In this document: positions 20,097 to 63,409 of the stretch, one piece after another | Layout of the letters: each line of letters begins with the position of its first letter | How positions within the stretch are numbered: the first letter of the stretch is position 1 | Origin: Patescibacteria group bacterium | GTDB taxonomy: Bacteria > Patescibacteriota > Minisyncoccia > Phycocordibacterales > Phycocordibacteraceae | DNA: 64,000 bases | Reading direction: 5' to 3' | Assembly: GCA_024653825.1 (NCBI GenBank) | Contig: JANLHF010000039.1 | Coordinates: 6,945-70,944, forward strand | Notes under the pieces: model-generated | What the model was told of the DNA's origin: nothing | Database searches by the model: none | The model's input: the letters and a program-made list of their open reading frames with translations, nothing else | Position numbers and translations under genes: made by a program

Positions 20097-20190
20097 TCAC
20101 AGCTCCTTTAGCGCAGTTGTAAGAACTTCGTTGCAGACTTCATTTATACACGATTTATTTGCATCGTCAAATGCCTGCTATACTGCCCAC

Positions 20191-21051
20191 ATGAAGCAGA
20201 AAAGGGCAGTGAGGAACCACGGGAAGAAAAAAAGAGTACCGATTAAGCACTGGAGCCATTCCAGCCTAATGTCCTTCCTAAGGAATCCGCTTGCTTGGTA
20301 CAAGCGCTATGTGGAGGAGATATACGATACGCCGACGACGCCGGCGGCGGTTATCGGCAGCGCGGGGCACCTCGCGCTGGAGCACTATTATTCGGGTGCG
20401 CCCAAGGATATCGCGATACAAAAAGGGTTGGAATACGTGCGCAGTATTGGCGACTTTGAAATTAATTTTGGTCAAGCGAAAAGCAAAGCGGCGCGGCGCG
20501 CGAAGCGCGCCGCGATGGAGGCCGACTATCTACGCGCCATCGGGTATTACCTCGCGCGTCCGCCGAAGCACAAAGTGCTCGGCGTGGAGGTACGGGGTGT
20601 GGTTGAGGTTGAAGGGCTGCCAATCCCCATCAAGGCGATTTCAGACTTGGTGGTGGAATCAAAAGTGGAGAAAGGAGCGGTGGACATTGTGGACCATAAA
20701 TTCGTCGCTTCTTTCAGCAAGGGAGGCGCGGCGAAATCGCTCTTCGTGATTCAGGCACTTTTTAATTACTACACCGTACGGGAGATGTTCGGGAAGCCGG
20801 TCCGGCGCTTTATCGTGTATGAGTGTAAGAAAACAAAGAACGCCGACGGATCCCCGCAGATGCGACGATACGAAATCGATTTCCAGAAGCACGCTCAAGA
20901 TTTCAAAGTCTTCCATCGGCTCATCAACGATGCGACCGAGGAGATTTCGCGCCGGCGCGTGTATCTACCAAACCCCTCCGATATGTTTGAAGGCGACAGT
21001 TCTTTTGATATTTATCGGTTGGAATTAGTTTCCGAGGGCCTGGTCGATTAA
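20191..21051 (+). CDS. PD-(D/E)XK nuclease superfamily protein (RecB/Cas4-like core without an Fe-S cluster)
   Basis: The N-terminal WSHSSLMSFLRNPLAWYKRY and the D...DIVDHK catalytic motifs are present. The start is an internal ATG at 20191, preceded by a TATACT box. Confidence 0.6.
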   Translation: MKQKRAVRNHGKKKRVPIKHWSHSSLMSFLRNPLAWYKRYVEEIYDTPTTPAAVIGSAGHLALEHYYSGAPKDIAIQKGLEYVRSIGDFEINFGQAKSKAARRAKRAAMEADYLRAIGYYLARPPKHKVLGVEVRGVVEVEGLPIPIKAISDLVVESKVEKGAVDIVDHKFVASFSKGGAAKSLFVIQALFNYYTVREMFGKPVRRFIVYECKKTKNADGSPQMRRYEIDFQKHAQDFKVFHRLINDATEEISRRRVYLPNPSDMFEGDSSFDIYRLELVSEGLVD

Positions 21052-21696
21052 CTGCTTCACCGCGTCGTAGGAGTATGATCCTTTCATCAAGACTGGGGGC
21101 TTCCCGGTGACGAGAATGAGAGAATACGGTGTGCCGAGCGCACCCATATCAAGTGCGTTCTGTCGGTCATCCATGATGCGTGTGTTGAGTGCCAGAGAGG
21201 CATTTGCATAACACGTTGCGAAAGCGTCTCCCGAGATGCCGACCGTTCTTGCGTATTCTCCGTAGCGCACAGGATCGGCCGGCTGGTTCTTAAAGAGGGT
21301 GTCTGCGAATTTCCAAAAACCATCGTTGCCGGCGACCTGTGCGGCACACTCGGCGGCGCGCGCGTGGGAGAGGGCATTCGGATGAATTTCAGAAAGTGGG
21401 AACTCGCGGAGGACCCAGGCGACCTGGCCATTCACTCCCGCGTTCGCGATGACCTGATGCAGTGTTTCGTGGAAGTCTTTGCAATATTCACAGTCGAAGT
21501 CAGAGTATTCCACAATCATCACCTTAGCGGTCGGATTTCCGAGAATGTGATCATCAGCGCCGACGGGCCGCACCAGGGCCGGATTGTCGGAACCGGTATC
21601 GGTTGAAGGATCTTTCGGCATCGAAAAATAAACCGCCCCCGCGACGATGACGCCGCCGACGATAATTGCGATGGGGACGGTGAGAGAGGTTTTCAT
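21025..21696 (-). CDS. DsbA-family thiol:disulfide oxidoreductase (membrane-anchored)
   Basis: It has an N-terminal transmembrane helix and a thioredoxin-fold CEYC active site. Confidence 0.75.
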   Translation of the reverse strand: MKTSLTVPIAIIVGGVIVAGAVYFSMPKDPSTDTGSDNPALVRPVGADDHILGNPTAKVMIVEYSDFDCEYCKDFHETLHQVIANAGVNGQVAWVLREFPLSEIHPNALSHARAAECAAQVAGNDGFWKFADTLFKNQPADPVRYGEYARTVGISGDAFATCYANASLALNTRIMDDRQNALDMGALGTPYSLILVTGKPPVLMKGSYSYDAVKQLIDQALGN

Positions 21697-22274
21697 AATG
21701 GCAGCGCGTGAGTCATCGAGGGGATAAGATGCGCATCGCTCTCCCAGAGGGACGTGTCGATCTTAATATCACGGATGTCGCGCAGGTCTTTGTATTTCAG
21801 TATACCGTGCTTGAGCGCGTAGTCGTAGAGTTCGCGCGTAAGGCGCACGTCCTCGATGCAGTATTCGGCAACCTTTTCTCGCTTGCCTTCCTTCCACCAT
21901 TCGCCGGCCTTGAGCCCATCGCCTTTTTTCCCTTTCCCGAGCGTCGCTTCGGCGAGCGACTGGAGGCGGATGCGCCGGCCGAGCACCTTCTGTACTTCGC
22001 TTAAGAGGTCCAGAGAGCGCAGACGGGAGAGATCTCCCGGGTAATAACGATTAAGAAGAGGGATATCAAAGGAGTCGGAATTAAAACCGATGAGCATATC
22101 CGTACGTTCGAGTATCGACCACAGCCTCGGTAGATCCTCTTTAAAATAGGAGGAGTAAGCGCCCGTCTCCGAATCGTGGATGGCGACGACAGTGAGTTCC
22201 TGCTCATCTACGTCCACACGACCACGCACGAGAGAATCGGATATGGATTCAATATCAAACGTGATGGCGCGCAT
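21693..22274 (-). CDS. DEDD-family 3'-5' exonuclease (DnaQ/RNase T-like)
   Basis: The Exo I (FDIES), Exo II (GFNSDSFDIP) and Exo III (YCIEDV) motifs are present. The gene is in an apparent operon with hisS and the dsbA-like gene. Confidence 0.65.
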   Translation of the reverse strand: MRAITFDIESISDSLVRGRVDVDEQELTVVAIHDSETGAYSSYFKEDLPRLWSILERTDMLIGFNSDSFDIPLLNRYYPGDLSRLRSLDLLSEVQKVLGRRIRLQSLAEATLGKGKKGDGLKAGEWWKEGKREKVAEYCIEDVRLTRELYDYALKHGILKYKDLRDIRDIKIDTSLWESDAHLIPSMTHALPL

Positions 22275-31372: not shown

Positions 31373-33076
31373 TTATGCCGAAGGTGCAGGGCGGATGAGG
31401 TCGTGCTTGATATCGGCAAACGTGCCGCCAACCTTCTTGCCGGGGTTGAAAATCCCTTGCGGGTCAAACATCTTTTTCGTTTTTTCAAAAAGTTCTATCA
31501 TTTCTGCACCGAAGAGCATCGGGAGATAGGGCGTGCGCACGATACCGTCATTGTGCTCGCCGGTCGTGGTGCCACCGGCCTCGATAACCATTTTATACAC
31601 CTTGGGCGCGAGGTCGAGAATGACTTGGCGATTCTCCTCCTTGGTGAGGTCCATCAGCGGAATGATGTGAATGTTACCGTCGCCAATGTGGCCCGCAACG
31701 GTATAAATCATATTGTCTTTGTATTCATCGAGAAGAGCATTCAGCTTCGGCAAGAATGTCGGATAACTTGAAGGCGGGACGACGAAGTCGTCGATGAAGG
31801 GCGAGGAGACGAGTCCGTGGAGATTCTTGCGCAAGAGGTTGAAGCTCTCGCGGCGCACTATCCAATACTTCTCTGACTCTTTTTCATTTTTTTCAATCTT
31901 CGTTTGTAAATGCAAGTCGGCCAAGGCCTCCTTGGCCGCCAGAGCTTTAGCGTCGGCGGCTTCGATAGTGTCTTCGGCAAATTCGGCCATTAATATCATC
32001 TTGGGCACACCGCCGGTCGCGACCATCGCCGCCTCGGGGATGAAGTCGATGCCGAGCCGCACCGCCTTTATAAGCCCCATTTGCGAGAGCATTTGGGGCA
32101 TAAACTTCACCGCGAGGGTGAAGGTGTGGTCGTCGTAGCTCTCAAACGATTCGGGCTTCTGGAGCAGAACGCGCCGGACAATCTCGGGAAGGATGTTGAG
32201 GTCGTAGAGGAAGCACACAAGCATCGCACGGTGCTCCTTGGGCTTCACCAACCCGAGCTTCGCCTGCGTCCAGAGCGCGAGCGTGCCTTGCGAGCCGCAG
32301 ACGAGCTTCGCAAGGTTGAAGCTGCCGGCGGTCGAATCTTTCACGCTCCAGAGCGCGTAGCCGGCAGAGTTTTTAGATACCTTCGGTCGGTGGCCTTCAA
32401 TGAGCCCGGCGTTCTCGGTGAGAAGCGCGTCCATCTCGCGATAAATCCCGCCTTCAAGCGTGTTCAACTTTTTCTTTTCTTCTAGTTCTGCGTATGACAG
32501 TGCCTTAAAGGTAGTTTGTGAGCCATCAGAGAGAACGACGTCGACTTCTTCGACATACTTTTCTGTCTTGCCGTACTTCAGTGTGCGCTCGCCGCCGGAA
32601 TTGTTTGCCACGATGCCGCCCATCGCGGCTATCTCGCGCGAGGCGGGGTAGGAGGGGAGTATTAAACCTTTTTCCAGTGTCGCCTTTTCAAAATCCCTAT
32701 AAAACACCCCTGGCTCCGTCACCGCGTACCCGTCAATTTCACTTGGGGGTCGGACCCCCAAGTCAGAAGTGACTTCGCCCATATGATTCATATGCTCGGT
32801 AAAAGAGACCACGACGCCGGTCGTGAGAGGGCCGCCCGACATGTCGGTACCGGCGGAGCGCGCCGCGAGCGAAATTTCAGTACCTCGACTTCGCTCGGCA
32901 CCTACGACGCGAACGAGTTCGGAAACATCGTTCGCGTCTACGGGATACACCACCAGCTCCGGCATCCGCGTAAACAGGGACGTGTCGCGACTAAGCTTCG
33001 CAAGCGTCGCGCCGTCATCACTCACCTCGCCCTTCATCACCCCCTTCAGCGCATTTTTCAAATCTTCTGTGGTCAT
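31373..33076 (-). CDS. FAD-linked oxidase (GlcD/D-lactate dehydrogenase family)
   Basis: It has the FAD_binding_4 N-domain (RSAGTDMSGGPLT) and a C-terminal GGTTTGEHNDGIVR region. The start is an internal ATG at 33076. An in-frame E1 palindrome encodes TSDLGVRPPSE. Confidence 0.8.
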   Translation of the reverse strand: MTTEDLKNALKGVMKGEVSDDGATLAKLSRDTSLFTRMPELVVYPVDANDVSELVRVVGAERSRGTEISLAARSAGTDMSGGPLTTGVVVSFTEHMNHMGEVTSDLGVRPPSEIDGYAVTEPGVFYRDFEKATLEKGLILPSYPASREIAAMGGIVANNSGGERTLKYGKTEKYVEEVDVVLSDGSQTTFKALSYAELEEKKKLNTLEGGIYREMDALLTENAGLIEGHRPKVSKNSAGYALWSVKDSTAGSFNLAKLVCGSQGTLALWTQAKLGLVKPKEHRAMLVCFLYDLNILPEIVRRVLLQKPESFESYDDHTFTLAVKFMPQMLSQMGLIKAVRLGIDFIPEAAMVATGGVPKMILMAEFAEDTIEAADAKALAAKEALADLHLQTKIEKNEKESEKYWIVRRESFNLLRKNLHGLVSSPFIDDFVVPPSSYPTFLPKLNALLDEYKDNMIYTVAGHIGDGNIHIIPLMDLTKEENRQVILDLAPKVYKMVIEAGGTTTGEHNDGIVRTPYLPMLFGAEMIELFEKTKKMFDPQGIFNPGKKVGGTFADIKHDLIRPAPSA

Positions 33077-33352
33077 ATGAGAACAGTATATACTAGGGGG
33101 ATGGAATGGTTCGAGTCCCGGTTCTGAGTCAATCAAGGCAACTAAAAGGCGAATTCTCGAAAAAGTACCATCAGCCAGTTTTAAGGTTGTAGACCAAGGA
33201 TTCACTGGTTTCATGGCGAGTCAGGCTCGTGACGATTTCTTTAAGTAATGAGTCTTTTTTGAGCAGTAATAAGATTCCAACACCGCCTCGCACAGCCAGC
33301 AGGCACCTTTCTTCCAACCCTCCCGAGTCCCGCTGCTCAAACGGAATTGAAA

Positions 33353-34827: not shown

Positions 34828-36528
34828 ATGACTCAAGGCGAGGCGCTTACGATTTTAAAAACGGGCGCGAATGTGTATCTCACCGGCGAGCCGGGGAGCG
34901 GGAAGACGTACACCATAAATGAATTCGTCGCGTGGCTGCGCGCCTCGGGCATCGAGCCGTCAGTAACCGCGGCGACCGGTATCGCGGCGACGCACGTCGC
35001 GGGGATGACGCTCCACTCCTGGAGCGGTATCGGTATTAACGAATCGCTCTCCCGCGCCGACGTCGACCGCATCGCGACCAAGGAGCACATCGCGAAACGT
35101 ATTACGAAAGCGAGGGTGCTCATTATTGAGGAAATTTCAATGCTTTCTTCTGCGACATTCGAGATGGCGGACGCTGTTTGCCGCGAGGTGCGTAGAGTCG
35201 ACAAGCCCTTCGGCGGGCTCACAGTCATCTTGGTGGGCGACTTTTTCCAGTTACCACCCGTCTCGCGTAATAGAGAAGTCGCTTTCGCCTATACGTCGCC
35301 GGCCTGGCGCGAATTAAATCTCATCACCTGCTATCTCACCGAGCAGTATCGCCAAGACGACAGTGAATTCCTCAGCGTGCTCTCCGCTATTCGCTCGGGA
35401 GAAGTGGAAGAGATGCACTACGAGCAACTTAGGACACGGCGTGTCCTAAATAAGGAAGAGGAGCCGGCGGATGCGCCAAAACTGTTTTCGCATAATGCCG
35501 ATGTCGATCGCATCAATGCGGCAGAACTTGCAAAACTAAAAGGAACATCGAAGAAATTCAGCATGAGCTCAAAAGGAAAGGATAGTTTCGTGGAGGGACT
35601 GAAGCGCGGCTGTCTCTCGCCTGAGGTGTTGGAGCTGAAGGAGGGCGCGGCGGTGATGTTCACCAAGAACTCGCCCCAAGGGAGATTTGTGAACGGTACG
35701 CTCGGCGTGGTGAGCGGATGGGGTGCTGATGGGGCGCCGATTGTGAAGACAAAAGAGGGGCTACGTATCACGACCGAGCCGATGGAGTGGCAACTTGAAG
35801 AGCAGGGGAAGGTGAAGGCGAGCGTCTCGCAGATACCGCTTCGGCTCGCCTACGCGATGACCGTGCATAAGAGCCAGGGGATGAGTATGGACGCGGCGAT
35901 TATGGATCTCTCGAGAGCCTTTGAATACGGACAGGGTTATGTCGCGCTCTCGCGGGTGCGCCGCCTGAGCGGGGTGTATCTCACGGGGCTCAATCAACGC
36001 GCGCTTGAAGTGCATCCGGAGATTCTTGAAAAAGATAAAGACTTCCGTGCCGCCTCAGAGGCGGCACGCGATGCGTTCGCCCCTCGACCAGACTCGGGGC
36101 AGGCGGGAATGTCTGAAACCGAGAAAATAGCGATGCAGAAGAAATTCGTCAAAGCGATGGGAGGAGCCTGGATGGAAAACACAGGGAGTAGCAAGCAAGG
36201 GGTAGGGAGTAGGAAAAAAGATTCGGCAGGGCTGCCGGGGAGACTGGCAGAGACGTTACAGACCGTGCGCGACGCGAAGAGTTTAAAAGAAGTCGTGAAG
36301 TCGCGCGGGCTCGTCGCCTCGACAATCGTGAAGCATCTGGAGGAGCTCGCAGAGATAGGGAAGCTCGCTCGTTCTGACTTCGCGCATCTCGTCCCCATAG
36401 ACATTGTTGATGAAATCCATGAAGCGCTCAAAGATGAAGACACGGATCGTCTTTCACCGGTATTCCATTCTCTCCACGGCCGGCACTCCTTCGAGACTAT
36501 CCGTCTCGTCCGCCTGATGCGGGATTGA
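34828..36528 (+). CDS. Pif1/RecD-family (AAA_30) DNA helicase
   Basis: It has a Walker A (GEPGSGKT), a TVHKSQGMSMD motif and a C-terminal extension. Confidence 0.8.
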   Translation: MTQGEALTILKTGANVYLTGEPGSGKTYTINEFVAWLRASGIEPSVTAATGIAATHVAGMTLHSWSGIGINESLSRADVDRIATKEHIAKRITKARVLIIEEISMLSSATFEMADAVCREVRRVDKPFGGLTVILVGDFFQLPPVSRNREVAFAYTSPAWRELNLITCYLTEQYRQDDSEFLSVLSAIRSGEVEEMHYEQLRTRRVLNKEEEPADAPKLFSHNADVDRINAAELAKLKGTSKKFSMSSKGKDSFVEGLKRGCLSPEVLELKEGAAVMFTKNSPQGRFVNGTLGVVSGWGADGAPIVKTKEGLRITTEPMEWQLEEQGKVKASVSQIPLRLAYAMTVHKSQGMSMDAAIMDLSRAFEYGQGYVALSRVRRLSGVYLTGLNQRALEVHPEILEKDKDFRAASEAARDAFAPRPDSGQAGMSETEKIAMQKKFVKAMGGAWMENTGSSKQGVGSRKKDSAGLPGRLAETLQTVRDAKSLKEVVKSRGLVASTIVKHLEELAEIGKLARSDFAHLVPIDIVDEIHEALKDEDTDRLSPVFHSLHGRHSFETIRLVRLMRD

Positions 36529-43749: not shown

Positions 43750-44190
43750 ATGGCAAAAAAGAAACCAACATATCCCGCCGCCGCGAGGCCGGAGCCCGCT
43801 TTGGCGAGGAAAAGGCCCGAGGGAGTTCGAGTCGGGAGAGCGAGCGCCGGGCTCGGGCTCTTCGCGACACGACCCTACAAGAAAGGCGAACGTGTCATCG
43901 AGTACGTTGGCCGGACGCTCACGAATGCCGAAGAATATTCAAGCCGCAGTAAGTATCTCTTTGAGGTGAATAAGAGGAAGACCATTGACGGCTCGATGCG
44001 CTCTAACATTGCGCGCTATATCAACCATTCCTGTAAGCCCAATTGTGAGCCGGAAATAGAGAGGGGACGTATTTTTATCGATGCGATTAGGAACATCAAA
44101 GAAGGAGAGGAGTTCGTCTACGACTATGGTGAAGAGTATTTTAATGAACATATCAAGCCCTATGGCTGTCGCTGTGCGAAGCATACGTAA
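43750..44190 (+). CDS. SET-domain protein lysine methyltransferase with a post-SET Cys cluster
   Basis: It has the NHSCKPNC and EEFVYDYG motifs and a C-terminal CRCAKH. Confidence 0.8.
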   Translation: MAKKKPTYPAAARPEPALARKRPEGVRVGRASAGLGLFATRPYKKGERVIEYVGRTLTNAEEYSSRSKYLFEVNKRKTIDGSMRSNIARYINHSCKPNCEPEIERGRIFIDAIRNIKEGEEFVYDYGEEYFNEHIKPYGCRCAKHT

Positions 44191-46647: not shown

Positions 46648-47061
46648 TCAAGGTAGATCAATTTCCTCGCTGTAGGTCGTATAGTCGACGGTCAGCTCCT
46701 CGCCGACCTCGATGTCCTCGATGGCGATGAAATCCTCACGGATCACTCGCATATTCGGACTCGAAGAATGATTCATATGCCACGATTTGGTTGCTTCCTC
46801 GAGACCGTTGTCAGGTATCCAGTAGTATCCCTTCTGGAACGCGCACATATCGTGCACCAGTTTTTTGACCGCTTCCGGCACCCCCCGCAGATCCTCATCC
46901 GATACTCGGATAGAACGAGCGAACGTGCTATCTCCCCTGAAGGGGCTTGTTCCTTCGGGGATCGGCCGTATAGCGAATACGCCGATGCCGTGGATAGGTG
47001 AGGGAGCGAGCCGGGTGAAGACATCGTCCCGCAACTGCTTCAGCAATTTCGTCTTGTTCAT
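46648..47061 (-). CDS. Second SET-domain protein (no post-SET)
   Basis: It has the MNHSSSPNM and GEELTVDY motifs. An AAAGGAG SD lies 8 nt upstream of the ATG at 47061. Confidence 0.7.
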   Translation of the reverse strand: MNKTKLLKQLRDDVFTRLAPSPIHGIGVFAIRPIPEGTSPFRGDSTFARSIRVSDEDLRGVPEAVKKLVHDMCAFQKGYYWIPDNGLEEATKSWHMNHSSSPNMRVIREDFIAIEDIEVGEELTVDYTTYSEEIDLP

Positions 47062-47164
47062 GTCTGCACTCCTTTCTTGTCCGCCTGTCACCATACCACT
47101 TTTCTATAAAAAAGAAATCGCCCCAAGCGCGTGAGCGCAAGGGGCGATGAGGTAACACGAAAGA

Positions 47165-48946: not shown

Positions 48947-49465
48947 TTACTGAATCGGCTGTTTGTCGAGAAGAGGGTAGTACTCGGGGCACTCTTTGTG
49001 CGGGATCACCATCAGTGGATCGTTCGCCATGACGAGCGACCTTTCCTCTTCGGTCATCTGCCGTAGATAGAAGAGTGTACAGCGGGGGTTTGTCTCGAAA
49101 CGTTGCAGAGAGACGGGAGTGACTTCTCCTGCCGTGTTAATGACAAAGGTCGGAAGACCCTCTCTGATGAACCATTGTGCGCTGTCGGCCACGTCGATAC
49201 CCATACGCCCATCGAGGAAGGGGAGCGCGACTACGCCGTCGCATTCGGGGAACACGACTTCATGGAAGTAGTTCATGAGGCCGGCGTCTGCGGAGTGTGC
49301 CCAGTGTCGGTACCCTTCTTCGTGTTCTGGCTCGTTCGGATTTTCGACCCGTTTTCTGGATATGTCGAAGTGTTTTGCGACTAGTGCGATAAGCGCCACT
49401 TCGAGCCGTGAACCATACACACTGACTGGGAGGGCAAGAAATGGGAAGAACAGGCGATGATCCAT
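48947..49465 (-). CDS. Uncharacterized protein, paralog A (172 aa) of a tandem pair
   Basis: It shares the ENPN.P.H.EGY, NYF.EV.P.CD..VA.PFLDGR.G and TEEE..LVMA.DP blocks with 49610..50212. Confidence 0.55.
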   Translation of the reverse strand: MDHRLFFPFLALPVSVYGSRLEVALIALVAKHFDISRKRVENPNEPEHEEGYRHWAHSADAGLMNYFHEVVFPECDGVVALPFLDGRMGIDVADSAQWFIREGLPTFVINTAGEVTPVSLQRFETNPRCTLFYLRQMTEEERSLVMANDPLMVIPHKECPEYYPLLDKQPIQ

Positions 49466-49545
49466 TGCGATACCTCCACACTAGTAAGAGAACGACGAAG
49501 CGTTGATTCCGCGGACATACTAGCGCAGCGTTTTGATAAACACAA

Positions 49546-49592
49546 TAAAAAACCGCCCGCCAACATTTACGAAGTTGTGGCGGGCGGCGTGC
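49546..49592 (-). terminator. Intrinsic terminator for the gene at 49610..50212
   Basis: A 10-bp GC stem (ccgcccgcca/tggcgggcgg) carries a U-tract on the minus strand. Confidence 0.55.
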
Positions 49593-49609
49593 GCACATGC
49601 CGAATGCAG

Positions 49610-50212
49610 TTACTTTTTGTCGGGATAAAACCCTGGCGGAACGGGTAGGGAAACCAGGTGCGCCGTCTCGAAAGGGCGCTTCTCTTTGCCGTAGACGAGG
49701 AATGTTCGAAGGCGCGTTTCGATGTGAGGGACAACGAGCCGAGGATCGTCTGCCATGACGAGGATCTTTTCTTCTTCGGTCAGCGGTCGCGGTTTGAAAA
49801 GTCCGCTTTGGTGATTTTCCTCGAAGGCTCGCAGGGAGTCGGGAGTAATCGCATCTTTGTCGAAGTCCATCACGAAGACCGGCAGGCCCTCCGTAATGAA
49901 CCATTTCATTTCGCCTGCAACGCCGAGCCCCACGCGGCCGTCGAGAAATGGCATTGCCACGCAGCTGTCGCATTTAGGCAACACTTCGTCGTAGAAGTAG
50001 TTCATGCCCTTATGATTCGTGGCCGCTAGGCTGGCGCGTTTGGCGTACAGTGTGTAGCCCTCTTGATGGTGCGGCTGATTCGGATTCTCGACACTTTCCT
50101 CGCAGATCTTGAACTGGTCGGTGAGGGCCTTTACCCAGGAGACTTCAAGTCGAGTGTCGTACGAGTTTACTGCGTGCGCGAAGTACGGTCGCATAAGTCT
50201 TTTTTCCATCAC
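49610..50212 (-). CDS. Uncharacterized protein, paralog B (about 195 aa) of a tandem pair
   Basis: It is clearly paralogous to 48947..49465, with about 45% identity over conserved blocks. Confidence 0.55.
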   Translation of the reverse strand: MMEKRLMRPYFAHAVNSYDTRLEVSWVKALTDQFKICEESVENPNQPHHQEGYTLYAKRASLAATNHKGMNYFYDEVLPKCDSCVAMPFLDGRVGLGVAGEMKWFITEGLPVFVMDFDKDAITPDSLRAFEENHQSGLFKPRPLTEEEKILVMADDPRLVVPHIETRLRTFLVYGKEKRPFETAHLVSLPVPPGFYPDKK

Positions 50213-50260: not shown

Positions 50261-50890
50261 CTAGCGCGCCCGTTTAACCCTGTCGAGTGCGACCGCGACC
50301 TCGTACGCCTTTCGCGCGCCATTGATCGCAGTGTGCACCGCCGGTTCCGGTTCGATGTTGAGCGTCCGTAGCAGATGGCTATTCCGCATGCTGTAGTCCG
50401 CAGGTTCGAAGGGCTCATTCGGAACGAGGAGTTCCTGAACTGCCATCGAACGATTGTCGAGTCGAGCGTAGTGGAAGTACTTTGTCTGCAATTCTTCTTG
50501 CGAGATGTTGTTCCACGCGAAGGCGGTCGACAAGAAATTCCAATCGAAGAAAAAATTCTGCCCACGCAGTACCGCAACACCCGGCGCCACATACCACGTG
50601 ACGAAGTTAAGGAACATCCGGAGGCCGTCAGTAAGAGACACGGCGGTGTTCCATTCTCCGCGCGCGGCGCGTGCCGGATAGTGGTTGATGAGATCGGGCA
50701 GACAACGCTCAGGATGTTCGGAGCGTATTTTAATCTCGCCTTCCTCGATGCACTGCAAGGTTTTCGAATCAGCGAGTACCCATCCCATGTCGATAATCTC
50801 GTGCCAAGGAATGAGTGTGTCGTCGACGCGTTTCAATGGGTCGTGCCCGGTTGTTTCCAGATCAAGAAACAGAAAAGGATATGTACGCAT
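50261..50890 (-). CDS. DEDD-family 3'-5' exonuclease (DnaQ-like fold)
   Basis: The Exo I (FLDLETTGHD), Exo II (NFFFDWNFL) and Exo III-like (HTAINGARKAYEV) motifs are present. Confidence 0.6.
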   Translation of the reverse strand: MRTYPFLFLDLETTGHDPLKRVDDTLIPWHEIIDMGWVLADSKTLQCIEEGEIKIRSEHPERCLPDLINHYPARAARGEWNTAVSLTDGLRMFLNFVTWYVAPGVAVLRGQNFFFDWNFLSTAFAWNNISQEELQTKYFHYARLDNRSMAVQELLVPNEPFEPADYSMRNSHLLRTLNIEPEPAVHTAINGARKAYEVAVALDRVKRAR

Positions 50891-50902
50891 TTTGGGACCT
50901 CT

Positions 50903-51436
50903 CTAATTGGTCAGACAGAGGGCTGCGATGAAGACATTCATCACTATTGCACCCCAAGGAACGAAGGTATTCGCGAAGTCGCGTTTCTCCGCTCCGAGAA
51001 TTGCGAGCAGACACGCGACGACCATGAGAAGCCAGAGCCACAGCGTGTCTGGCTGTGGCTTGTCCCAGTACTGCGCCATGAGCGGTACAAAGGCGACATA
51101 ACGAGCAGTCATGTATGCCCAGAGTGCCCGACGCGCGGTCTGAGAGATCCAGAGCCAGACCGTAACCCCGAAGAACAGAACCGATAGTGTTTCGGTCAGC
51201 CCCCAGCCGATCTGGTTGTCGTTCATCAGTACCGCAGAGAGGACGAAGAGGCCCGCTGCCGCCCACCCGAGTTGCAGGAACGGCTTTGTATTGCCGTCCT
51301 TAATAACAAGTATCAGCCCCAGGGTGTCCAGAGCCATACTCATTCCCCACGTGGCTGCGCTCTGCGGGACGTGGTGTACGTAGAGCATCCAGGCGAAGAG
51401 CACACAGATGCCGAAACTCAGTAAACCGCTTGCCAT
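50903..51436 (-). CDS. Integral membrane protein (5-6 transmembrane helices), hypothetical
   Basis: The ORF is hydrophobic. The start is uncertain; the longer ORF runs to 51595. Confidence 0.4.
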   Translation of the reverse strand: MASGLLSFGICVLFAWMLYVHHVPQSAATWGMSMALDTLGLILVIKDGNTKPFLQLGWAAAGLFVLSAVLMNDNQIGWGLTETLSVLFFGVTVWLWISQTARRALWAYMTARYVAFVPLMAQYWDKPQPDTLWLWLLMVVACLLAILGAEKRDFANTFVPWGAIVMNVFIAALCLTN

Positions 51437-52624: not shown

Positions 52625-55426
52625 TCAGACCGAGTCGGGCAGGAACTCATCCCACGGGAACGGTTCCCCGGACGTGAGATATTTCTGCACCGTCGTCGGA
52701 GTCAGATGCACGACGCTAATCTCGCCGGCATCGGGGCCTTCAGCAGGCAATCCGATGAAGGCAACGCCCGCATTGTTCTCGGCAAGGCCGCCGGCGATTT
52801 CTGCAAAGCCGTCCGTATGGGTCGACGACGGTCCCATCACATAGACATCACCTCCCGCGAACGCTCCCGCGAAGAAGTGCTTGTCGCCCGTGATGTGAAC
52901 AATCGACTTCTCGTCGAGGACGGACGAAGGATTCCCGCGTGCGCGGTTCACCGCCACCCAGCCATGCAGGACGTCTTTCCAGCTGTCGCGTTTCGGCGGG
53001 GTGCCACTTATGTGGAGTCCCCACTCGTAGCCGTCGCCGACCTTCAGCGTGCCGTAGGCAATCCCCAGGTCCTGGAAGAGTGGCCAACGGATGAGGCGGT
53101 CGAGATCGAGACCGGCAAGGTCCGGATCGCCCGCGAGCCTCATACGCAAGATTTCCGCAACGATCGCGCCCTCGTGGAGCATACCGTCGGTCGTCTTGGT
53201 TGCGTGATTGCCGGAGCCGAAATTGATGACCCCGACGTCGCGCATATCGTTCGGTACGTTCGAGAAGTCGCTGACGCCTCTCACCACAACTTTCGCCCGT
53301 TTGGCCGCAAGGAGAATTCCCTTGAAGATATCGGGGTACGGCCGGATGAGCCCGTGGAAGAGCTCCTGGAACTGTCCGGTCAGATAATCCGGCGGACGGC
53401 TCTTCACTTGGTCCATTAGTTCGCGATACAGTTTCCTTTCTTCTCCCTCGCGCACCTTCAGATCACGAATCGTACGGATACGTCTGAGCTTCTGCTCGTT
53501 GTCCGCAAGAATTTCCGCGAACGATCGCCAGTGATAATGCGGGCGCATATGCGTGCCGAAGTGGTTGCCGTGCAGGATGTCGTCGCAGACAAAGAGTCCT
53601 GCGACCGGCGTTGCACCACCTCTGCTTAAGCCCGACTTCTGCATCAGCTCAAAGACCGCCTCAGTGAGGCCGATTGGCATACCGGAGGGGCGATGCAAGA
53701 ATACCCGCATCGATCCGCCGAAGTGCATATCGGTCGCCACCATTAGCCACAGCTTGTCTGCTGGAGCCGGAGAAGGCCCGCGTCGTGGCGCGCTTATTTT
53801 GCGTACCGCTTCTGCCGAGATGAAGTCAGGCGTGATGCCGAGGTCTGAATCAATCTTGATGACGAGCATCCCCCCGTTGAACATGGGGTCAGCCACCGCC
53901 TTCACGACGGGAAGCTTTATGCGAGTGCCACGTGTCCTGTCGAGGATAGGACCCTTATCGATGAGCATCGGCGCTTCGACGAAACCGACCGTGCCGAGCA
54001 TCGAACCACTCAGGTAATTCTCCCGGGAAGTCTTCCGCATGTAGACGGAACGCGGATGCGATACCACGGTCAGGGAGGGCAGGTTGCCTTTCCGTTGCGC
54101 GGGGCCGTAGCTGCCGAGTTCATCGTAGTACGGATTGTTGCTGTCACCGCCGGAGACGAACTTGATGATACTCGCGTTCTTGCCGAAGATGACATGCGCC
54201 GAGTTCTGATCGATGACCTTCGTATTCGGCATATGCTTCTCGATCTCGTGGATCAGGTACGAAAGCGCCTGGTCGTAGACGCGTCTGTTTTGCGTCGGGT
54301 CGAGGTTCGTCATCCGCATACGGCTCACGAGCCGGGACGCATCGCGCGACTCACCTTCGACTTCTTCGTACGCTCTTTGGGCCTCATTCATGGCGGTCTT
54401 GGAGCCACTGTGTCGAGTGTCAGTCAGGTAGACGTGCGCTTCGGCCGCAAGCTTTGCTCGTACATTTGCTTCGGCTTCAGCCTCACGCAGCTCCTGATTC
54501 TGCAGGTAGAGCAGTTCGAAGTACGCCATACGTCGTACCAGCCCGAGTTCATCGGGACTAAGTACGATATACACCGGACCATCGAATTCAGGTCTCCCAT
54601 CAGGGCGAACCATAATCTTGTACCATCCCCGCAGAAGGTCTTTGAACCGTTCGTAGGCGGTGGTGAAGATCGGTCCGAACTCGCCCTTTTTGAGGATTTC
54701 GGCTACGCGGTCGCGATAGTTTGCTGCCATTGACTCGATGTCAATCTCAGTACCGGTCACGAGGTCGTCGAGAAGCCGGTTCGGACCAGTCGTCTTCTGC
54801 CAGGTGAGGCGGAAGAGGCCCCCGCTAATGACGAGTGCATCGCACCGCATCTTCCGTGCTGCCGAAATGCCGGAGCGCGTGAGATTACGTACGATGTCGG
54901 GGTCATACGCGAGGCCGAGCTGAGGCGCCGAGATGAGTGCGATGCGGAACCGATCCGATTTGTTCTTAGGGAGCGCATGGAAGGGTTTGCTATGACTCGT
55001 TTCTTCGAGCGAGTACGGCGGTGCGTCGGTGAACGGCACGCGGAGAATGCCCGGCAAATTTACCGTCTCTTCGCGCGGTGCCGAAGTGCGCCCCTTCATG
55101 TCTTGAAACTTCGCTTCCACGACCCACTCTGGCGGTACGGTACGATTACCTAATTGCTTTTTGAGCACCATATGGAGTTTGGCCGAGGAGTACTTGGCCT
55201 TTACTGCGTGCACCAGAAGATCCTTCCGGTCTTCCCAGAAGATGGCGTCGAGCTCCGCATAAAGACGGGTCTTCGTGATTTCATCCCTATGGGTAGATAG
55301 CGCAGCAGGCAGTTCCTTGATGAGCGTCTTGCGCAGAATATCGAGACTTACCGGAGGACGCTTGAGTCGCATCTTCGCTTCGATCTTGTCCGTAATCCAG
55401 CTGTTGAATGCTTTTATCGTAGACAT
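52625..55426 (-). CDS. Large (933 aa) uncharacterized protein with a C-terminal Mre11/SbcD-like metallophosphoesterase domain and an N-terminal half of unknown function containing coiled-coil
   Basis: The MPE motifs are I LWLMVATDMHFGG, II VCDDILHG, III FGSGNHA and V/VI ITGDKHFF. The N-terminus contains degenerate MPE-like blocks (RIALISAPQLG, CDALVISGG). The gene is monocistronic, with its own SD (AAAGGAG) and terminators. Confidence 0.55.
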   Translation of the reverse strand: MSTIKAFNSWITDKIEAKMRLKRPPVSLDILRKTLIKELPAALSTHRDEITKTRLYAELDAIFWEDRKDLLVHAVKAKYSSAKLHMVLKKQLGNRTVPPEWVVEAKFQDMKGRTSAPREETVNLPGILRVPFTDAPPYSLEETSHSKPFHALPKNKSDRFRIALISAPQLGLAYDPDIVRNLTRSGISAARKMRCDALVISGGLFRLTWQKTTGPNRLLDDLVTGTEIDIESMAANYRDRVAEILKKGEFGPIFTTAYERFKDLLRGWYKIMVRPDGRPEFDGPVYIVLSPDELGLVRRMAYFELLYLQNQELREAEAEANVRAKLAAEAHVYLTDTRHSGSKTAMNEAQRAYEEVEGESRDASRLVSRMRMTNLDPTQNRRVYDQALSYLIHEIEKHMPNTKVIDQNSAHVIFGKNASIIKFVSGGDSNNPYYDELGSYGPAQRKGNLPSLTVVSHPRSVYMRKTSRENYLSGSMLGTVGFVEAPMLIDKGPILDRTRGTRIKLPVVKAVADPMFNGGMLVIKIDSDLGITPDFISAEAVRKISAPRRGPSPAPADKLWLMVATDMHFGGSMRVFLHRPSGMPIGLTEAVFELMQKSGLSRGGATPVAGLFVCDDILHGNHFGTHMRPHYHWRSFAEILADNEQKLRRIRTIRDLKVREGEERKLYRELMDQVKSRPPDYLTGQFQELFHGLIRPYPDIFKGILLAAKRAKVVVRGVSDFSNVPNDMRDVGVINFGSGNHATKTTDGMLHEGAIVAEILRMRLAGDPDLAGLDLDRLIRWPLFQDLGIAYGTLKVGDGYEWGLHISGTPPKRDSWKDVLHGWVAVNRARGNPSSVLDEKSIVHITGDKHFFAGAFAGGDVYVMGPSSTHTDGFAEIAGGLAENNAGVAFIGLPAEGPDAGEISVVHLTPTTVQKYLTSGEPFPWDEFLPDSV

Positions 55427-55955: not shown

Positions 55956-56678
55956 ATGTTCAACCTGAGGGAGGTTGTCGTTATGGATGAGACAAGAGAA
56001 ATATTGGTGGTTCCCGCTAAACCGAAAGACGTGAAAGAAGAAGCGCGTTTCCAGAACTTGAACGGCAGGGGATTCGTGCGCGCCGAGACGGCGGGGTATC
56101 AGTGGTACCTGCTCGTGAATGAAGCCTGCGAGAAGTCGAAATTGCCGGTCGATAATTTGGTGCGGGAATATCTCGGCGCGATGCTTCATCGTTTTATGAC
56201 GCGCGCGGGGCTGTTCAAGGATCTGTCTTCCTTCAACTTCTATCAGCACATGCTCGGGATACCGAAGACCGTTCCGGTTTGTCTTCAGGAAGTTGCCGAT
56301 ATCTGTCTCCAGTACGTCGCCTTCTTCCCAGAGCAGAGCGGGTATCGACACCAACCGCGAACTGTTGAGCATGTCGCGAATATGGGGACGAGTCTGTATT
56401 ACGAGCTCGCGAGAGCGTCGATGGGGAAGGACGACTTTTTCAGTCGCGCGCTTCAGCTGATGCCCAAATCATTCGGTCGCTCAGTCATGGTGCTCCGATC
56501 TGTGTGTCCGAGGTTCGCACATCGCAGAACCATTGCCGCGGAATGGGAACGTCGGCGTCAAGCGACATGCGTCCCGAGCGTTGCTGGGAAGCAATTGAGT
56601 TTCCCGGGCCAGGTGATGAATTACGTGCATCTCCAATCTGACGATACCCCGATGGTTTCAGGCAGTTTGAAGAACTAA
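55956..56678 (+). CDS. Hypothetical protein (about 230 aa)
   Basis: ORF with coding-like composition. Confidence 0.4.
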   Translation: MFNLREVVVMDETREILVVPAKPKDVKEEARFQNLNGRGFVRAETAGYQWYLLVNEACEKSKLPVDNLVREYLGAMLHRFMTRAGLFKDLSSFNFYQHMLGIPKTVPVCLQEVADICLQYVAFFPEQSGYRHQPRTVEHVANMGTSLYYELARASMGKDDFFSRALQLMPKSFGRSVMVLRSVCPRFAHRRTIAAEWERRRQATCVPSVAGKQLSFPGQVMNYVHLQSDDTPMVSGSLKN

Positions 56679-61378: not shown

Positions 61379-61606
61379 ATGTTTATAAAAGTATTCGTTA
61401 CGCCGAGTGCGAAGCGCGAAAGAATAGACGAAAAGGGCGATGCGTTGCTCGTGGCAGTAAAAGAGCCAGCAATGGGGAATCGCGCGAATACGCGCGTGCG
61501 CGAGATTGTCGCCGCACGGGAAGGTGTGCCGGTGGGGAAGGTGCGCATACTGACAGGACACCGTTCTCGGGTTAAAATGGTAAGTGTTACTAGCCCCGAC
61601 GCTTAG
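61379..61606 (+). CDS. DUF167/YggU-family protein
   Basis: The DUF167 pattern is VKVTPSAKRERI...LLVAVKEPAMGNRAN... Confidence 0.65.
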   Translation: MFIKVFVTPSAKRERIDEKGDALLVAVKEPAMGNRANTRVREIVAAREGVPVGKVRILTGHRSRVKMVSVTSPDA

Positions 61607-61645
61607 TCGGGGCCCCGACTAAGCGTCGGGGCTGATTTTTCCACT
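61596..61645 (+). terminator. 40-bp perfect palindrome (two inverted 20-nt units) followed by a T-tract; strong terminator or cruciform
   Basis: The sequence is gccccgacgcttagtcgggg|ccccgactaagcgtcggggc, then TGATTTTTCC. It overlaps the yggU stop codon. Confidence 0.65.
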
Positions 61646-62008
61646 ATGCATATCACCATCAAGACGACAAAGCTTAAATTAGATCCAGAGACTGAAGCGA
61701 TGGTAGAAGAGAAGCTCGCGGCGCCCCTGCGTCTGCTTGGAGAAGACGGCGATAACGCTCTACTAGAAATAGATGTGGAAGAAGCGCCGCCGGAGGGCCG
61801 CTCGTCAGAGCCGTACCATCTGGTCGCTCGGCTTATCGTAAATGGCGAGGTGTACCACGCCGAAGCAGTGAAGCCGACGCCGGAGAGCGCAGCCGACAGA
61901 GTACGCAGTGAACTAGAGGCAGAAATACGACGCTCGCGCGGGCGCGCACGCAAACTCTGGAAGCGCGGTAGCTCGGCGGTTAAGAATATGTTGCGCTTCG
62001 GCCGTTAG
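61646..62008 (+). CDS. hpf: Ribosome hibernation promoting factor / RaiA family (short form with a basic tail)
   Basis: The N-terminus MHITIKTTKLKLDPETEAMVEEKL is typical of the S30AE family. Confidence 0.8.
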   Translation: MHITIKTTKLKLDPETEAMVEEKLAAPLRLLGEDGDNALLEIDVEEAPPEGRSSEPYHLVARLIVNGEVYHAEAVKPTPESAADRVRSELEAEIRRSRGRARKLWKRGSSAVKNMLRFGR

Positions 62009-62856
62009 CCTTTGTATTCCGTTTCGCGTTTGCCTTCGGGAATGACGCGCAGGACACGGAAAACGCCCGCGGCGTTTTCCGCGGAGATGATTTTCATACG
62101 CTTTCCGTTTTCAAAGAAATACGTGCCGATGCTGTCAGCGTAGGCACGATACTTGTTCCAGTTTTCTTGTGCGGGCGCAGTGAGGTCGAGAAGACCGTCT
62201 TCTTTTGCGAGTTTACGCGCGCGCGAAGCGCGCGCGGCGTCCTGGGCGACTGGCGTAATCTCATCGCGTTCAAATACAGGGAGTGTAGTGGTGAGAAGCG
62301 TTGCGCCCATCTCGATGAGTCGCGGGCGCAGTTCACGCGCAGTCTCGTCAGGCACTATCGTCGTTTTTTCTTGTGCGAGGATGTCGCCCGCATCAAGCTC
62401 GCGCACCATTTTCTGTATCGTCACACCGGTCTCAGCTTCGCCCATGAGAAGCGCGGTCTCGAGCGGCGTTGCGCCACGATACTTCGGTAGGAGCGAGTAG
62501 TGCACATTTAAAACGCCTTTCGGGAATGTGGCGATAAGCGCCTCGGGAAATATTTTTCCGTAGGCGACGACGACGGCGTAGTCAGTGTGCTGCGACGCGA
62601 TTGCCGCAATCGCGACGTCATCCAATTTTTCTGGCGTGAGGACTGGAATAGTGTGCGCGAGCGCGAGCTCCTTGGTGAGCGAAGGGGTGAGCGCGAGGCC
62701 ACGTCCTTTTGGCGCGTCCGGAGACGTCACGACAAGTGTCGGTATAAAACCGTGTTCGATTAGAAGCGCGAGCGTGTCGCTTGCGACCTTCGGCGTGCCA
62801 AAATAGACGAAGCGAAGCGAGCCCCTTTGTTGGGCGAACTTATGCGACTGCGGCAT
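62005..62856 (-). CDS. fmt: Methionyl-tRNA formyltransferase
   Basis: The HYSLLPKYRGATP motif is present. The gene overlaps the def stop, giving a def-fmt operon. Confidence 0.85.
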   Translation of the reverse strand: MPQSHKFAQQRGSLRFVYFGTPKVASDTLALLIEHGFIPTLVVTSPDAPKGRGLALTPSLTKELALAHTIPVLTPEKLDDVAIAAIASQHTDYAVVVAYGKIFPEALIATFPKGVLNVHYSLLPKYRGATPLETALLMGEAETGVTIQKMVRELDAGDILAQEKTTIVPDETARELRPRLIEMGATLLTTTLPVFERDEITPVAQDAARASRARKLAKEDGLLDLTAPAQENWNKYRAYADSIGTYFFENGKRMKIISAENAAGVFRVLRVIPEGKRETEYKG

Positions 62857-63409
62857 GGTGGATGTGGATAAGATTCTCCGCGTGGTCGACGAAGAGGACG
62901 CCGTTGAGATGATCGATTTCGTGCTCGAATATCTGCGCTATGAGCCCGCCGCCCCCGCGCTCAAACTTTGTGCCGTCGACGCGACGCGCGCAGACGGTCA
63001 CGCGCTCGTGCCTATTGGTTGTGCCGTACACGCCGCGGACGGAAAGACACCCCTCATCCGCCTTCGCGCGTTTGCGGGAGGTCTTCACAATCTCCGGATT
63101 GATATACACTTCAACCTCAGCACTTGGGGGTCCGACCCCCAAGTCTGACTTGGGGGTCGGACCCCCAAGTGGAGCTTCGGGAAGAGGTGGTAGGGTGCGA
63201 TCTTTCCGCACGATGAAGATGCGATAGGGAATGCCGATCTGTGGTGCGGCGAGCGCGACACCCTCGAGTTCAGGATCGAGCGCTTCGGTCATATCGTCAA
63301 TAATCTTTGCGAGCTTTGGCGTATCGAAAAACTCCTCGGGCACCGGCTCGGCCGTCCCGCGGAGCACCTCGGCACCGTCTTGCACGATTTCTTTCATGTC
63401 GTTTAGCAT
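62840..63409 (-). CDS. def: Peptide deformylase
   Basis: It has the three deformylase motifs GVALAAPQIG, EGCLS and HEIDHLNG. A tandem in-frame E1 palindrome pair encodes LGGPTPKSDLGVGPPS in a surface loop. Confidence 0.85.
   Translation of the reverse strand: MLNDMKEIVQDGAEVLRGTAEPVPEEFFDTPKLAKIIDDMTEALDPELEGVALAAPQIGIPYRIFIVRKDRTLPPLPEAPLGGPTPKSDLGVGPPSAEVEVYINPEIVKTSRKRAKADEGCLSVRGVYGTTNRHERVTVCARRVDGTKFERGGGGLIAQIFEHEIDHLNGVLFVDHAENLIHIHHAAVA

Follow-up and report, generated by a model that had tools for sequence, protein, structure and literature searches.

An inverted pair of very short palindromes in the peptide deformylase gene of a Patescibacteria bacterium

The window analysed in this work, a stretch of 64,000 nucleotides (nt) from a Patescibacteria group bacterium (contig JANLHF010000039.1), contains the gene def, encoding peptide deformylase, in the coding sequence (CDS) of which two copies of a short palindrome, named E1, lie side by side in inverted orientation. 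Further copies of E1 are present in two other genes of the window and in other genomes of the same phylum, and related hairpins of different sequence occupy the same loop of def in several lineages. We lean, with modest confidence, towards the reading that the def segment is an inverted E1 pair of a dispersed hairpin repeat, similar to repetitive extragenic palindromic (REP) sequences and to Rickettsia palindromic elements (RPEs), which is tolerated in protein loops and kept perfect by template switching. E1 itself is best read as one family of a clade-restricted superfamily of very short REP-like hairpins in Patescibacteria of the Paceibacteria type.

The genomes of Patescibacteria are tiny and densely packed with genes, and leave selfish DNA little space. 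Here, hairpins of 23 nt were found inside essential genes, in the same loops in many lineages, and their symmetry outlasts synonymous sites. Protein-coding palindromes like those of Rickettsia are thereby documented in another phylum and at a far smaller size, and they offer a natural system for studying how template switching during replication shapes coding sequence, how protein loops gain residues, and how an essential gene and its mRNA can accommodate an internal stem of -52 kcal/mol. The repeats also lengthen the loops of marker proteins and can mislead alignments, phylogenies and gene calling in these organisms.

The E1 pair in the def gene

Positions refer to the 64-kb window, and numbers with the letter L denote related loci used for comparison. 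The features of def and of its palindrome are as follows:

62840-63397, minus strand: def, peptide deformylase CDS, 185 amino acids (aa) plus stop codon
63148-63170: E1 copy read first in def, its central base G on the plus strand and C on the coding strand, ACTTGGGGGTCGGACCCCCAAGT
63145-63147: spacer between the two E1 copies, CTG on the plus strand and CAG on the coding strand
63122-63144: E1 copy read second in def, its central base C on the plus strand, ACTTGGGGGTCCGACCCCCAAGT
63121-63171: composite perfect 51-nt palindrome (25-1-25) centred on T63146, the inverted E1 pair

The consensus of E1 is ACTTGGGGGTC-[C/G]-GACCCCCAAGT, 23 nt in length, and each def copy is a perfect 11-1-11 palindrome. 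Two adjacent copies with a CTG spacer at 63122-63170 had been noted in a preliminary description, and the sequence agrees with this. They had also been called a tandem pair; the copies are indeed adjacent, but they are not a plain direct tandem, since their central bases C and G are complementary, so that the pair is inverted and 63121-63171 is a single perfect palindrome.

The 21-nt core of the first copy corresponds to nt 229-249 of def, translated as L77-GGPTP-K83, and that of the second to nt 255-275, translated as (D85)L-G-V-G-P-P-S92; due to the period of 26 nt, the two copies are translated in different frames. The spacer with its flanks makes the doublet centre GTC-A-GAC, coding for S84-D85, and the centre GTCAGAC is common to related def doublets. 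The coding strand reads CCA CTT GGG GGT CCG ACC CCC AAG TCA GAC TTG GGG GTC GGA CCC CCA AGT GCT, with the translation P76-LGGPTPKSDLGVGPPS-A93, where LGGPTPKSDLGVGPPS comprises residues 77-92; the predicted tryptic peptide covering the element is SDLGVGPPSAEVEVYINPEIVK.

The composite palindrome is predicted to fold into a single long hairpin, with an energy of -52.1 kcal/mol as RNA (z = -10 relative to shuffled sequences) and -32.3 kcal/mol as DNA, while a predicted -16.3 kcal/mol and arms of 11 bp were obtained for a single 23-nt E1 unit. A search of Rfam with the 51-mer gave only sub-threshold matches to eukaryotic microRNA precursors, as any long hairpin gives.

In the list of open reading frames (ORFs), def starts with ATG at 63397, and its stop codon ends at 62840 on the minus strand. 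The protein is 100% identical to the peptide deformylase of the NCBI entry 'MAG: Patescibacteria group bacterium', located on an 88-kb contig. Its assignment is supported by Pfam PF01327, by matches to solved deformylases (E-values down to 2e-22) and by the catalytic motifs GVALAAPQ, EGCLS and HEIDH, which are invariant in the Def alignment A1, as expected for peptide deformylase. Downstream lies fmt (62005-62856, minus strand), overlapping def by 17 nt.

The element is located between motif 1 (GVALAAPQ) and motif 2 (EGCLS) and is in frame, as proposed earlier; all six of its frames are free of stop codons. Its placement in a variable loop between these motifs was likewise upheld: Def residues ~64-96 correspond, in solved deformylases, to a turn that joins two strands and has 7-10 residues. 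Structure modelling was of less use, since the AlphaFold2 model, built from an alignment of 34 sequences, has a mean predicted local distance difference test score (pLDDT) of 60, with residues 75-89 of the loop among the stretches of lowest confidence; the model was too poor, and the placement of the loop was therefore taken from the alignment to solved structures. The loop carrying the element is likely flexible, as far as the model indicates.

Comparison was extended to 120 close Def homologs with 69-78% identity, all of which have a long loop at the element site. The length of this loop, measured from the residue after RKDRT to YINP, is bimodal, with a basal class of 20-23 aa (...PEG[AT]PLPPPPP...) and a long class of 27-34 aa, to which the window protein with 29 aa belongs. 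The loop native to the clade is thus itself rich in Pro and Gly, and because the clade already has a long loop of this kind, the net gain over the basal class is about 6-7 residues and not the 16 residues of the in-frame segment, which had been thought to be added as a whole. Conservation of the segment in distant Def proteins, named in the preliminary description as the observation contrary to its proposal, was not found; in more distant Defs, among the matches listed, the site is taken by unrelated fillers or by a short turn.

The long loops comprise three peptide families: family A, similar to E1 (LGGxTxKSDLxVxPPS), family B (QGSTLxxNSQGRTL) and family C (SGELPAKQEVLAP). DNA was taken for seven family-A alleles, in all of which a 49-nt doublet is located at the same codons, with arms that differ and co-vary; the cores of three alleles (window, L089 and L092) lie at exactly nt 229-249 and 255-275 of def. 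The doublets are inverted in four alleles (window, L088, L089 and L098) and direct in three (L097, L099 and L092). In L088 and L089, the half-loops of 5-7 nt are reverse complements of each other, and so are the half-loops of L098. Two different singlets lie side by side in def of L100 (family C), and an imperfect inverted pair with a longer spacer is present in that of L090 (family B); no strong palindrome was found in the basal def loops of L008 and L009. The same loop is thus reused across lineages. A related allele, P0006, is represented on 23 contigs, and the same layout is present in independent assemblies from NCBI, JGI, ENA and Logan.

A recent insertion into this def gene does not follow from these data, since no empty def allele of the window's lineage was found and relatives carry co-varying doublets at the same position. 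Because the related doublets occupy the same codons, the def doublets are better explained by a site occupied long ago, or by a hot spot used repeatedly, than by a fresh tandem insertion.

Dispersed copies of E1 and related hairpins

The proposal that E1 is a genuine dispersed repeat was borne out. Four occurrences of the 21-nt core were counted in the window, compared with 0.00 in 100 dinucleotide-preserving shuffles; no further copies were found in the window at up to three mismatches, nor any degenerate or decayed copies by a search with a looser skeleton. All four copies belong to an identical 23-mer family and lie inside long ORFs of recognised families (trmD, FAD oxidase and def), the frames of which stay open. 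Beside the def pair, the following sites were identified:

6389-6411: E1 singlet in trmD (CDS 6159-6824, plus strand), read as S-LGGRTPK-L
32738-32770: 33-nt in-frame block in the gene of an FAD-linked oxidase (CDS 31373-33214, minus strand), read as TSDLGVRPPSE

The E1 singlet within the latter block is located at 32741-32763 and read as DLGVRPPS; the host protein matches Pfam PF01565 and PF02913.

In a scan with one genome per species, the exact 23-mer was found in only three other metagenome-assembled genomes (MAGs), all of Patescibacteria, namely, H41-bin079 (six copies), Modern_marine.mb.145 (one copy) and a Kaiserbacteria MAG (one copy). About half of these copies are in long ORFs; the rest are in short open frames and are probably intergenic, with flanks that sometimes prolong the palindrome. 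E1 is free of stop codons in all six frames, the readings being TWGSDPQ, LGG[RP]TPK and LGV[RG]PPS, and just two of these, LGG[RP]TPK and LGV[RG]PPS, are used by the copies in long ORFs. The 5' flank of E1-type cores is often NCA (CCA, TCA or GCA). No match to the E1 family was found in viral contigs, and thus no phage copy. In an intergenic stretch of H41-bin079 (L003, 4067-4174), several hairpins occur together, including an extended E1 (TCAAGC-E1-GCTTGA), the motif AAGTCTGACTT and TGTGAAGGTCTGACCTTCACA, which suggests that hairpin elements cluster or nest outside genes too.

The insertion of E1 into coding sequence, assumed earlier for def, is directly evident for the FAD-oxidase copy: the ortholog in H41-bin079 (L005) is without the clean 33-nt in-frame block TSDLGVRPPSE of the window. 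In trmD, the E1 copy is common to the window and H41-bin079 (L007). Among 120 TrmD homologs, there are many 'empty' alleles of 218 aa (KALK-GKKGKP), as well as many LGGxTxKL variants of the same length, unrelated inserts and double inserts. At the DNA level, L093 represents an empty allele, L094 a different singlet (TGTGTAGGACGTC-G-GACGTCCTACATA), L095 a different inverted doublet laid out as in def, hairpin(C)-CAG-hairpin(G), with the same CAG spacer but with the centre ATC-A-GAT, and L096 an imperfect pair. On balance, trmD was lengthened by 3 codons, def by 6 to 7 and the FAD-oxidase gene by 11, and the trmD element is about as long as the corresponding loop of solved TrmD proteins. This small net change indicates that the element often replaces loop sequence instead of adding to it.

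E1 is accompanied by many other hairpins. In the window, 16 perfect palindromes were counted whose arms measure at least 11 nt and whose loops measure 0-5 nt, compared with 0.13 in shuffled sequences. The close relatives, comprising 339 kb (window, L001-L009 and L088-L100), contain 54 perfect palindromes of the N-1-N type with an arm length of 9 nt or more, 36 of which have the apex TC-N-GA, mostly as GTC-N-GAC or ATC-N-GAT. Distant Def loci from the metagenome scan, used as a negative control (647 kb), yielded 18 such palindromes among the matches listed, two of them with this apex, which corresponds to a density ~34-fold higher in the close relatives. The hairpins are in this sense restricted to the clade. 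At low density, the phenomenon may extend past it: single hairpins with the apex GGTC-N-GACC were found at two distant Patescibacteria loci, L029 (~4709, in the def loop) and L017 (6695-6715), with 44% Def identity and, for one of them, a GC content of 0.41; one of these hairpins, located within the def loop, resembles a unit of family B.

The TC-N-GA apex is common to several distinct stem families, which tend to be genome-specific. The def variant of L097 (ACTTGGCGGTC-S-GACCGCCAAGT) was found again 5 kb away on the same contig, and the core of the trmD doublet of L095 recurs ~250 nt upstream of trmD. This tendency is opposed by L089, L092, L098 and L099, for which no second copy was found within 8-20 kb, and by L002, which holds two variants. 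Beside def and trmD, a further hot-spot gene is that of the DNA polymerase III delta' subunit (holB, Pfam PF13177), in which different in-frame perfect palindromes of 21-37 nt occupy two recurrent positions; L091 is grouped with L090 as a host of such a palindrome. These palindromes are located as follows:

L089, 5217-5239
L090, 6686-6710
L092, 4728-4764
L098, 6726-6746 and 6884-6918

A perfect 42-nt palindrome, AGCCCCGACGCTTAGTCGGGGCCCCGACTAAGCGTCGGGGCT, was also found in an intergenic region of the window (61592-61633). It is an inverted pair of hairpins with arms CCCCGAC/GTCGGGG and loops GCTTA and TAAGC, which are reverse complements of each other; the doublet layout is that of def, with another stem family, and Rfam gave only a sub-threshold microRNA match. 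The palindrome ends 13 nt upstream of an ORF of 120 aa (61646-62008), the orthologs of which show a weak Pfam match to ribosomal S30AE/hibernation factors in L090.

The pentamer TCNGA is depleted in the window, where it occurs 211 times, compared with 354 +/- 17 times in dinucleotide shuffles. Among the 16 pentamers of the form XYNY'X', it has the lowest Markov observed/expected ratio (0.70), with CCNGG (0.73) and AGNCT (0.75) close to it. TCNGA is thus rare in the window, yet forms the apex of most hairpin repeats; a link to restriction-modification is only possible.

Other genes of the window include an ORF of 933 aa (52625-55426) and three ORFs of 237-270 aa (49260-49973, 50375-51187 and 55956-56678), all without a Pfam match. 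The block just upstream of them, at 44-48 kb, has the lowest GC content of the window (0.517), and two genes of SET-domain proteins (43750-44190 and 46648-47094) are located near it. Genes of a PaaX/Cas2-like protein (18858-19445) and of a protein of the PD-(D/E)XK nuclease superfamily (20023-21051) are neighbours, adjoined by a 3'-5' exonuclease-like gene (21693-22274).

Constraint on the palindromes and explanations of their origin

The pairing of arms was examined in alignment A2 of the seven def doublets with a model of one long hairpin of 23 pairs, 500 shuffles and slid controls. In this model, 95.7% of cells are paired, 13 of the 23 pairs changed on both sides, and there are 26 cells with double changes and a single G-U cell; none of the 500 shuffles reached these values, and the slid controls gave 24-45% pairing. 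A model of two hairpins also fits A2, but the co-variation of the half-loops is explained by the long hairpin alone. The arms thus co-vary by Watson-Crick pairing. The strictness of the double changes and the near absence of wobble pairs argue against selection for an RNA fold and favour a DNA-templated process.

Conservation at the DNA level exceeds what the proteins need. The trmD genes of the window and H41-bin079 are 80% identical overall and 56% at third codon positions, while the 36-nt block spanning E1 is 100% identical; twelve consecutive identical third positions have, by a rough estimate, a probability near 1e-3. Another palindrome of trmD, CCCCGCGACTTCGTCGCGGGG at 6270-6290, codes for NPRDFVAG, and the nine codons surrounding it are 100% identical in DNA to H41-bin079. 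Similar symmetry was found in another gene:

36046-36068: 23-nt palindrome (11-1-11) with the apex TC-A-GA, CGTGCCGCCTCAGAGGCGGCACG, in the gene of a Pif1-like helicase (34828-36528, Pfam PF05970), read as RAASEAAR

In the H41-bin079 ortholog, this palindrome differs only at positions 3, 9, 12, 15 and 21, that is, at the centre and in two mirror pairs, all of which are synonymous, and it is still perfect. A second palindrome of the same gene, TTAGGACACGGCGTGTCCTAA at 35429-35449, lies in a variable stretch with an insertion or deletion.

Judging from these sequences, selection appears not to act on the peptide: E1 is read in two frames, and residues are free to change, with pairing kept. It had been suggested that the element tolerates, or is selected for, insertion into coding sequence; tolerance agrees with the data, and selection for such insertion found no support.

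According to the reading of E1 as a dispersed, tolerated hairpin repeat, repeats at the DNA level would be copied to new places in the genome, and the survivors would be those copies that landed in, or overwrote, permissive surface loops, keeping the frame and free of stop codons. Tolerated copies would be translated as loop filler rich in Gly, Pro, Ser and Thr, the peptide itself being probably neutral, and hairpin repeats, once established, could persist for a long time. The complementarity of arms would be upheld by template switching within the hairpin during replication (quasipalindrome correction), the simplest known process that fits the co-variation of arms. The likeness of copies within a genome would come from continued copying of a common source, by transposition-like spread or by ectopic conversion. 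The spread may be carried out by an enzyme recognising the hairpin and its TC-N-GA apex, for example, of the HUH/Y1 type or another structure-specific enzyme.

A more far-reaching version, which we regard as possible but doubtful, is that these hairpins constitute an undescribed class of ultra-short (21-27 nt) perfect elements, defined by structure and the TC-N-GA apex and not by the sequence of the stem, propagated and homogenised by a structure-specific enzyme and preferentially targeting the same surface loops of essential genes (def, trmD and DNA polymerase III delta') throughout the clade. If so, they would represent a type of mobile element specialised for coding sequence in streamlined genomes almost devoid of intergenic space.

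Several observations speak against a dispersed, tolerated repeat. No target-site duplication is consistent across the flanks of 14 E1 copies, and there is no fixed length of insert, the same 23-nt unit giving +3, ~+7 and +11 codons; in trmD, loop sequence of near-equal length was replaced rather than added to. The copy number found is low, with four per 64 kb and six exact copies in the representative MAG H41-bin079, and no transposase or recombinase was found among the 40 window ORFs scanned with Pfam, which cover only 64 kb. The identical def coordinates in several lineages point to a single old event or a functional site more than to repeated random insertion. In a nearest-neighbour test of vertical descent against recurrent insertion on the loop-free Def core, the nearest neighbours belong to the same family in 55 cases, compared with 42 under permutation and a maximum of 64, on a tree too weak to separate the two. 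Furthermore, the lack of decayed E1 copies in the window is unusual for purely selfish DNA, so that active homogenisation or selection is needed.

The main rival explanation, which we consider unlikely, is that the hairpins are functional cis-elements under site-specific selection, the identical dispersed copies being binding or processing sites for one host factor; as a DNA cruciform or an RNA stem, they would modulate transcription, translation pausing, mRNA processing or the replication of def-fmt and other housekeeping operons. Such a role is suggested by the doublet at the same def coordinates in several lineages, by pairing maintained for a long time through many compensatory changes, by conservation exceeding the need of the protein, by the very stable predicted stem of -52 kcal/mol and by the window being free of decayed copies. 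However, template switching can conserve perfect repeats in the absence of function (PMC5941160), many lineages do without the element (empty trmD alleles, basal def loops and the empty FAD-oxidase site), the host genes are unrelated and some copies intergenic, no Rfam family was found, and the scarcity of G-U pairs argues against selection for an RNA fold. Even less probable is that the palindromes are recognition sequences which do not transpose, either accumulated by molecular drive in the manner of uptake sequences or serving as TC-N-GA sites of restriction-modification or DNA binding. The apex is kept across otherwise unrelated stems, TCNGA is the most depleted of the 16 pentamers, and uptake sequences of other bacteria are also located in tolerant parts of coding sequence, all of which count in favour of this explanation. 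Uptake sequences occur roughly once per kb, and the density of E1 is far below this; moreover, several stem families exist side by side, the depletion of TCNGA is no outlier, no restriction-modification gene of matching specificity was found among the 40 window ORFs by Pfam, and a site bound as double-stranded DNA would keep the sequence of its arms and not just their pairing.

The palindromes might also arise in place, from seeds in loops that are extended and perfected by template switching, with nothing moving between loci. The process itself is established (PMC7202029), net length changes are far below the palindrome length, as in replacement, and stems vary by locus and lineage under a shared short apex. 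For E1, this origin is largely refuted by the identical dispersed copies: the same 23-mers at three unrelated genes of the window and at least seven loci in other MAGs are not independent, and the FAD-oxidase block is a clean addition of 33 nt, so that we regard an origin in place as improbable. A P-nucleotide-like local origin, considered because the net gain in trmD and def is about half the palindrome length, was rejected for E1 owing to the identical copies at unrelated loci. Least credible is that the segment is kept as a useful peptide module or is an assembly artefact of metagenome binning. It resembles the Gly/Pro-rich native loop of the clade and is placed by AlphaFold2 in a low-confidence, likely flexible loop, but the frame in which this DNA is translated differs from gene to gene, and residues vary with pairing preserved; an artefact is contradicted by the same layout in four independent sets of assemblies and by the occurrence of allele P0006 on many contigs.

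Comparison with known palindromic repeats

The closest protein-coding analogues of E1 are the RPEs, elements of ~150 bp located in frame in genes, with 44 insertions in R. conorii (PMC10969869). They add a peptide to unrelated functional genes and are interpreted as selfish DNA that persists at positions where the protein can accept it (PMC10969869, PMC3733652). E1 is similar in being a palindromic repeat in frame in unrelated genes that stay open (trmD, FAD oxidase and def). RPEs, however, are ~100-150 bp in length, encode one conserved peptide and belong to an alphaproteobacterial intracellular parasite, whereas E1 is 23 nt, perfect, read in two frames and found in Patescibacteria; furthermore, compared with RPEs as described, E1-type elements occupy the same sites across lineages, with co-varying arms.

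REPs of 20-40 bp wholly within ORFs were reported in several species by Di Nocera et al. 2013 (PMC3733652); more than half of such intragenic REPs are in dimers or groups, coding for 20-30 aa, many of them in genes of replication and repair (PMC3733652). The group tagged by CGTC includes the short elements RPE-4 and RPE-6 and has no dedicated transposase (PMC3733652). Like the GTAG and CGTC REPs, E1 consists of short hairpins, some of them in ORFs, with close inverted dimers folding into one larger stem, and its NCA 5' flank weakly recalls the CCA tail of these REPs. However, an unpaired terminal tag GTAG or CGTC/TGTC/CCTC is absent from the E1 unit and is not consistent in the flanks of the 14 copies, the stem is 10-11 bp with a loop of 1-3 nt, compared with 8-9 bp and 4-5 nt in REPs, and E1 does not start with two A/T pairs. 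GTC of E1 belongs to the paired apex and also to the centre of the dimer, as GTC-N-GAC, whereas a head-to-head dimer of CGTC REPs is GACG...CGTC. Membership in the CGTC-tagged superfamily was considered, the centre in L089 and L098 being CGTC-A-GACG, and was rejected, since tag order, pairing state and the sizes of stem and loop do not fit the published definition. REPs are also predominantly extragenic, unlike the four window copies of E1, all of which are intragenic. Their number is tens to thousands per genome; for E1, 4 copies were counted in the 64 kb of the window and 6 exact copies in the MAG H41-bin079.

A short palindromic core (~20-60 bp) able to form a hairpin is common to E1 and REPs; that of E1 is perfect, whereas imperfection is typical of REPs (PMC3116915). 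REPINs, which are hairpin-forming inverted doublets of REPs, make up genome-specific, long-persisting families (PMC3116915), and the def pair resembles them as an inverted doublet of a short palindrome folding into a long hairpin, with genome-specific families. REPINs, however, are extragenic and number hundreds per genome; their cores are imperfect, their spacers measure tens of bases, the doublets being spaced by 71 or 110 bp, and they are associated with the gene of the REP-associated tyrosine transposase (RAYT), whereas E1 has a spacer of 3 nt and few copies, is intragenic in the window, and no RAYT (Y1 HUH transposase) was found among the 40 window ORFs scanned with Pfam, the window being a fraction of the genome.

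Template switching at quasipalindromes turns imperfect inverted repeats into perfect ones during replication (PMC7202029) and was proposed to explain perfect inverted repeats conserved among proteobacterial orthologs (PMC5941160). Such repeats are over-represented and stay perfect, which matches the strict Watson-Crick double changes found here, but maintenance of this kind acts in place and leaves the identical copies at unrelated loci and the filled/empty polymorphism unexplained. Palindromic amphipathic repeat coding elements (PARCELs; PMC2996958) also consist of coding DNA with dyad symmetry and spread both inside a genome and from one genome to another; however, they are made of an amphipathic motif of 25 residues repeated in long tandem arrays, belong to accessory membrane proteins and are selected as protein domains, whereas the E1-type repeats are single hairpins in the loops of housekeeping enzymes. 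Miniature inverted-repeat transposable elements are 70-300 bp in length, with terminal inverted repeats, a non-palindromic body and target duplications (PMC3733652), whereas E1 is 23 nt and palindromic throughout. The density of E1, four copies in 64 kb, and the presence of several stem families also differ from DNA uptake signals.

Elhai and co-workers reportedly described in 2008 small dispersed repeats (SDRs) of 21-27 nt in Nostoc that are capable of forming hairpins, were proposed to be mobile and are sometimes nested or adjacent, and in this they resemble E1; these repeats are cyanobacterial and reportedly mostly intergenic. No paper linking Patescibacteria with in-frame palindromes was found in the literature search. 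E1 works like RPEs, intragenic REPs and REPINs but lacks several of the features that define them; new here are the phylum, the extreme shortness together with perfection, the shared TC-N-GA apex, and the reuse of the loops of essential genes across lineages.

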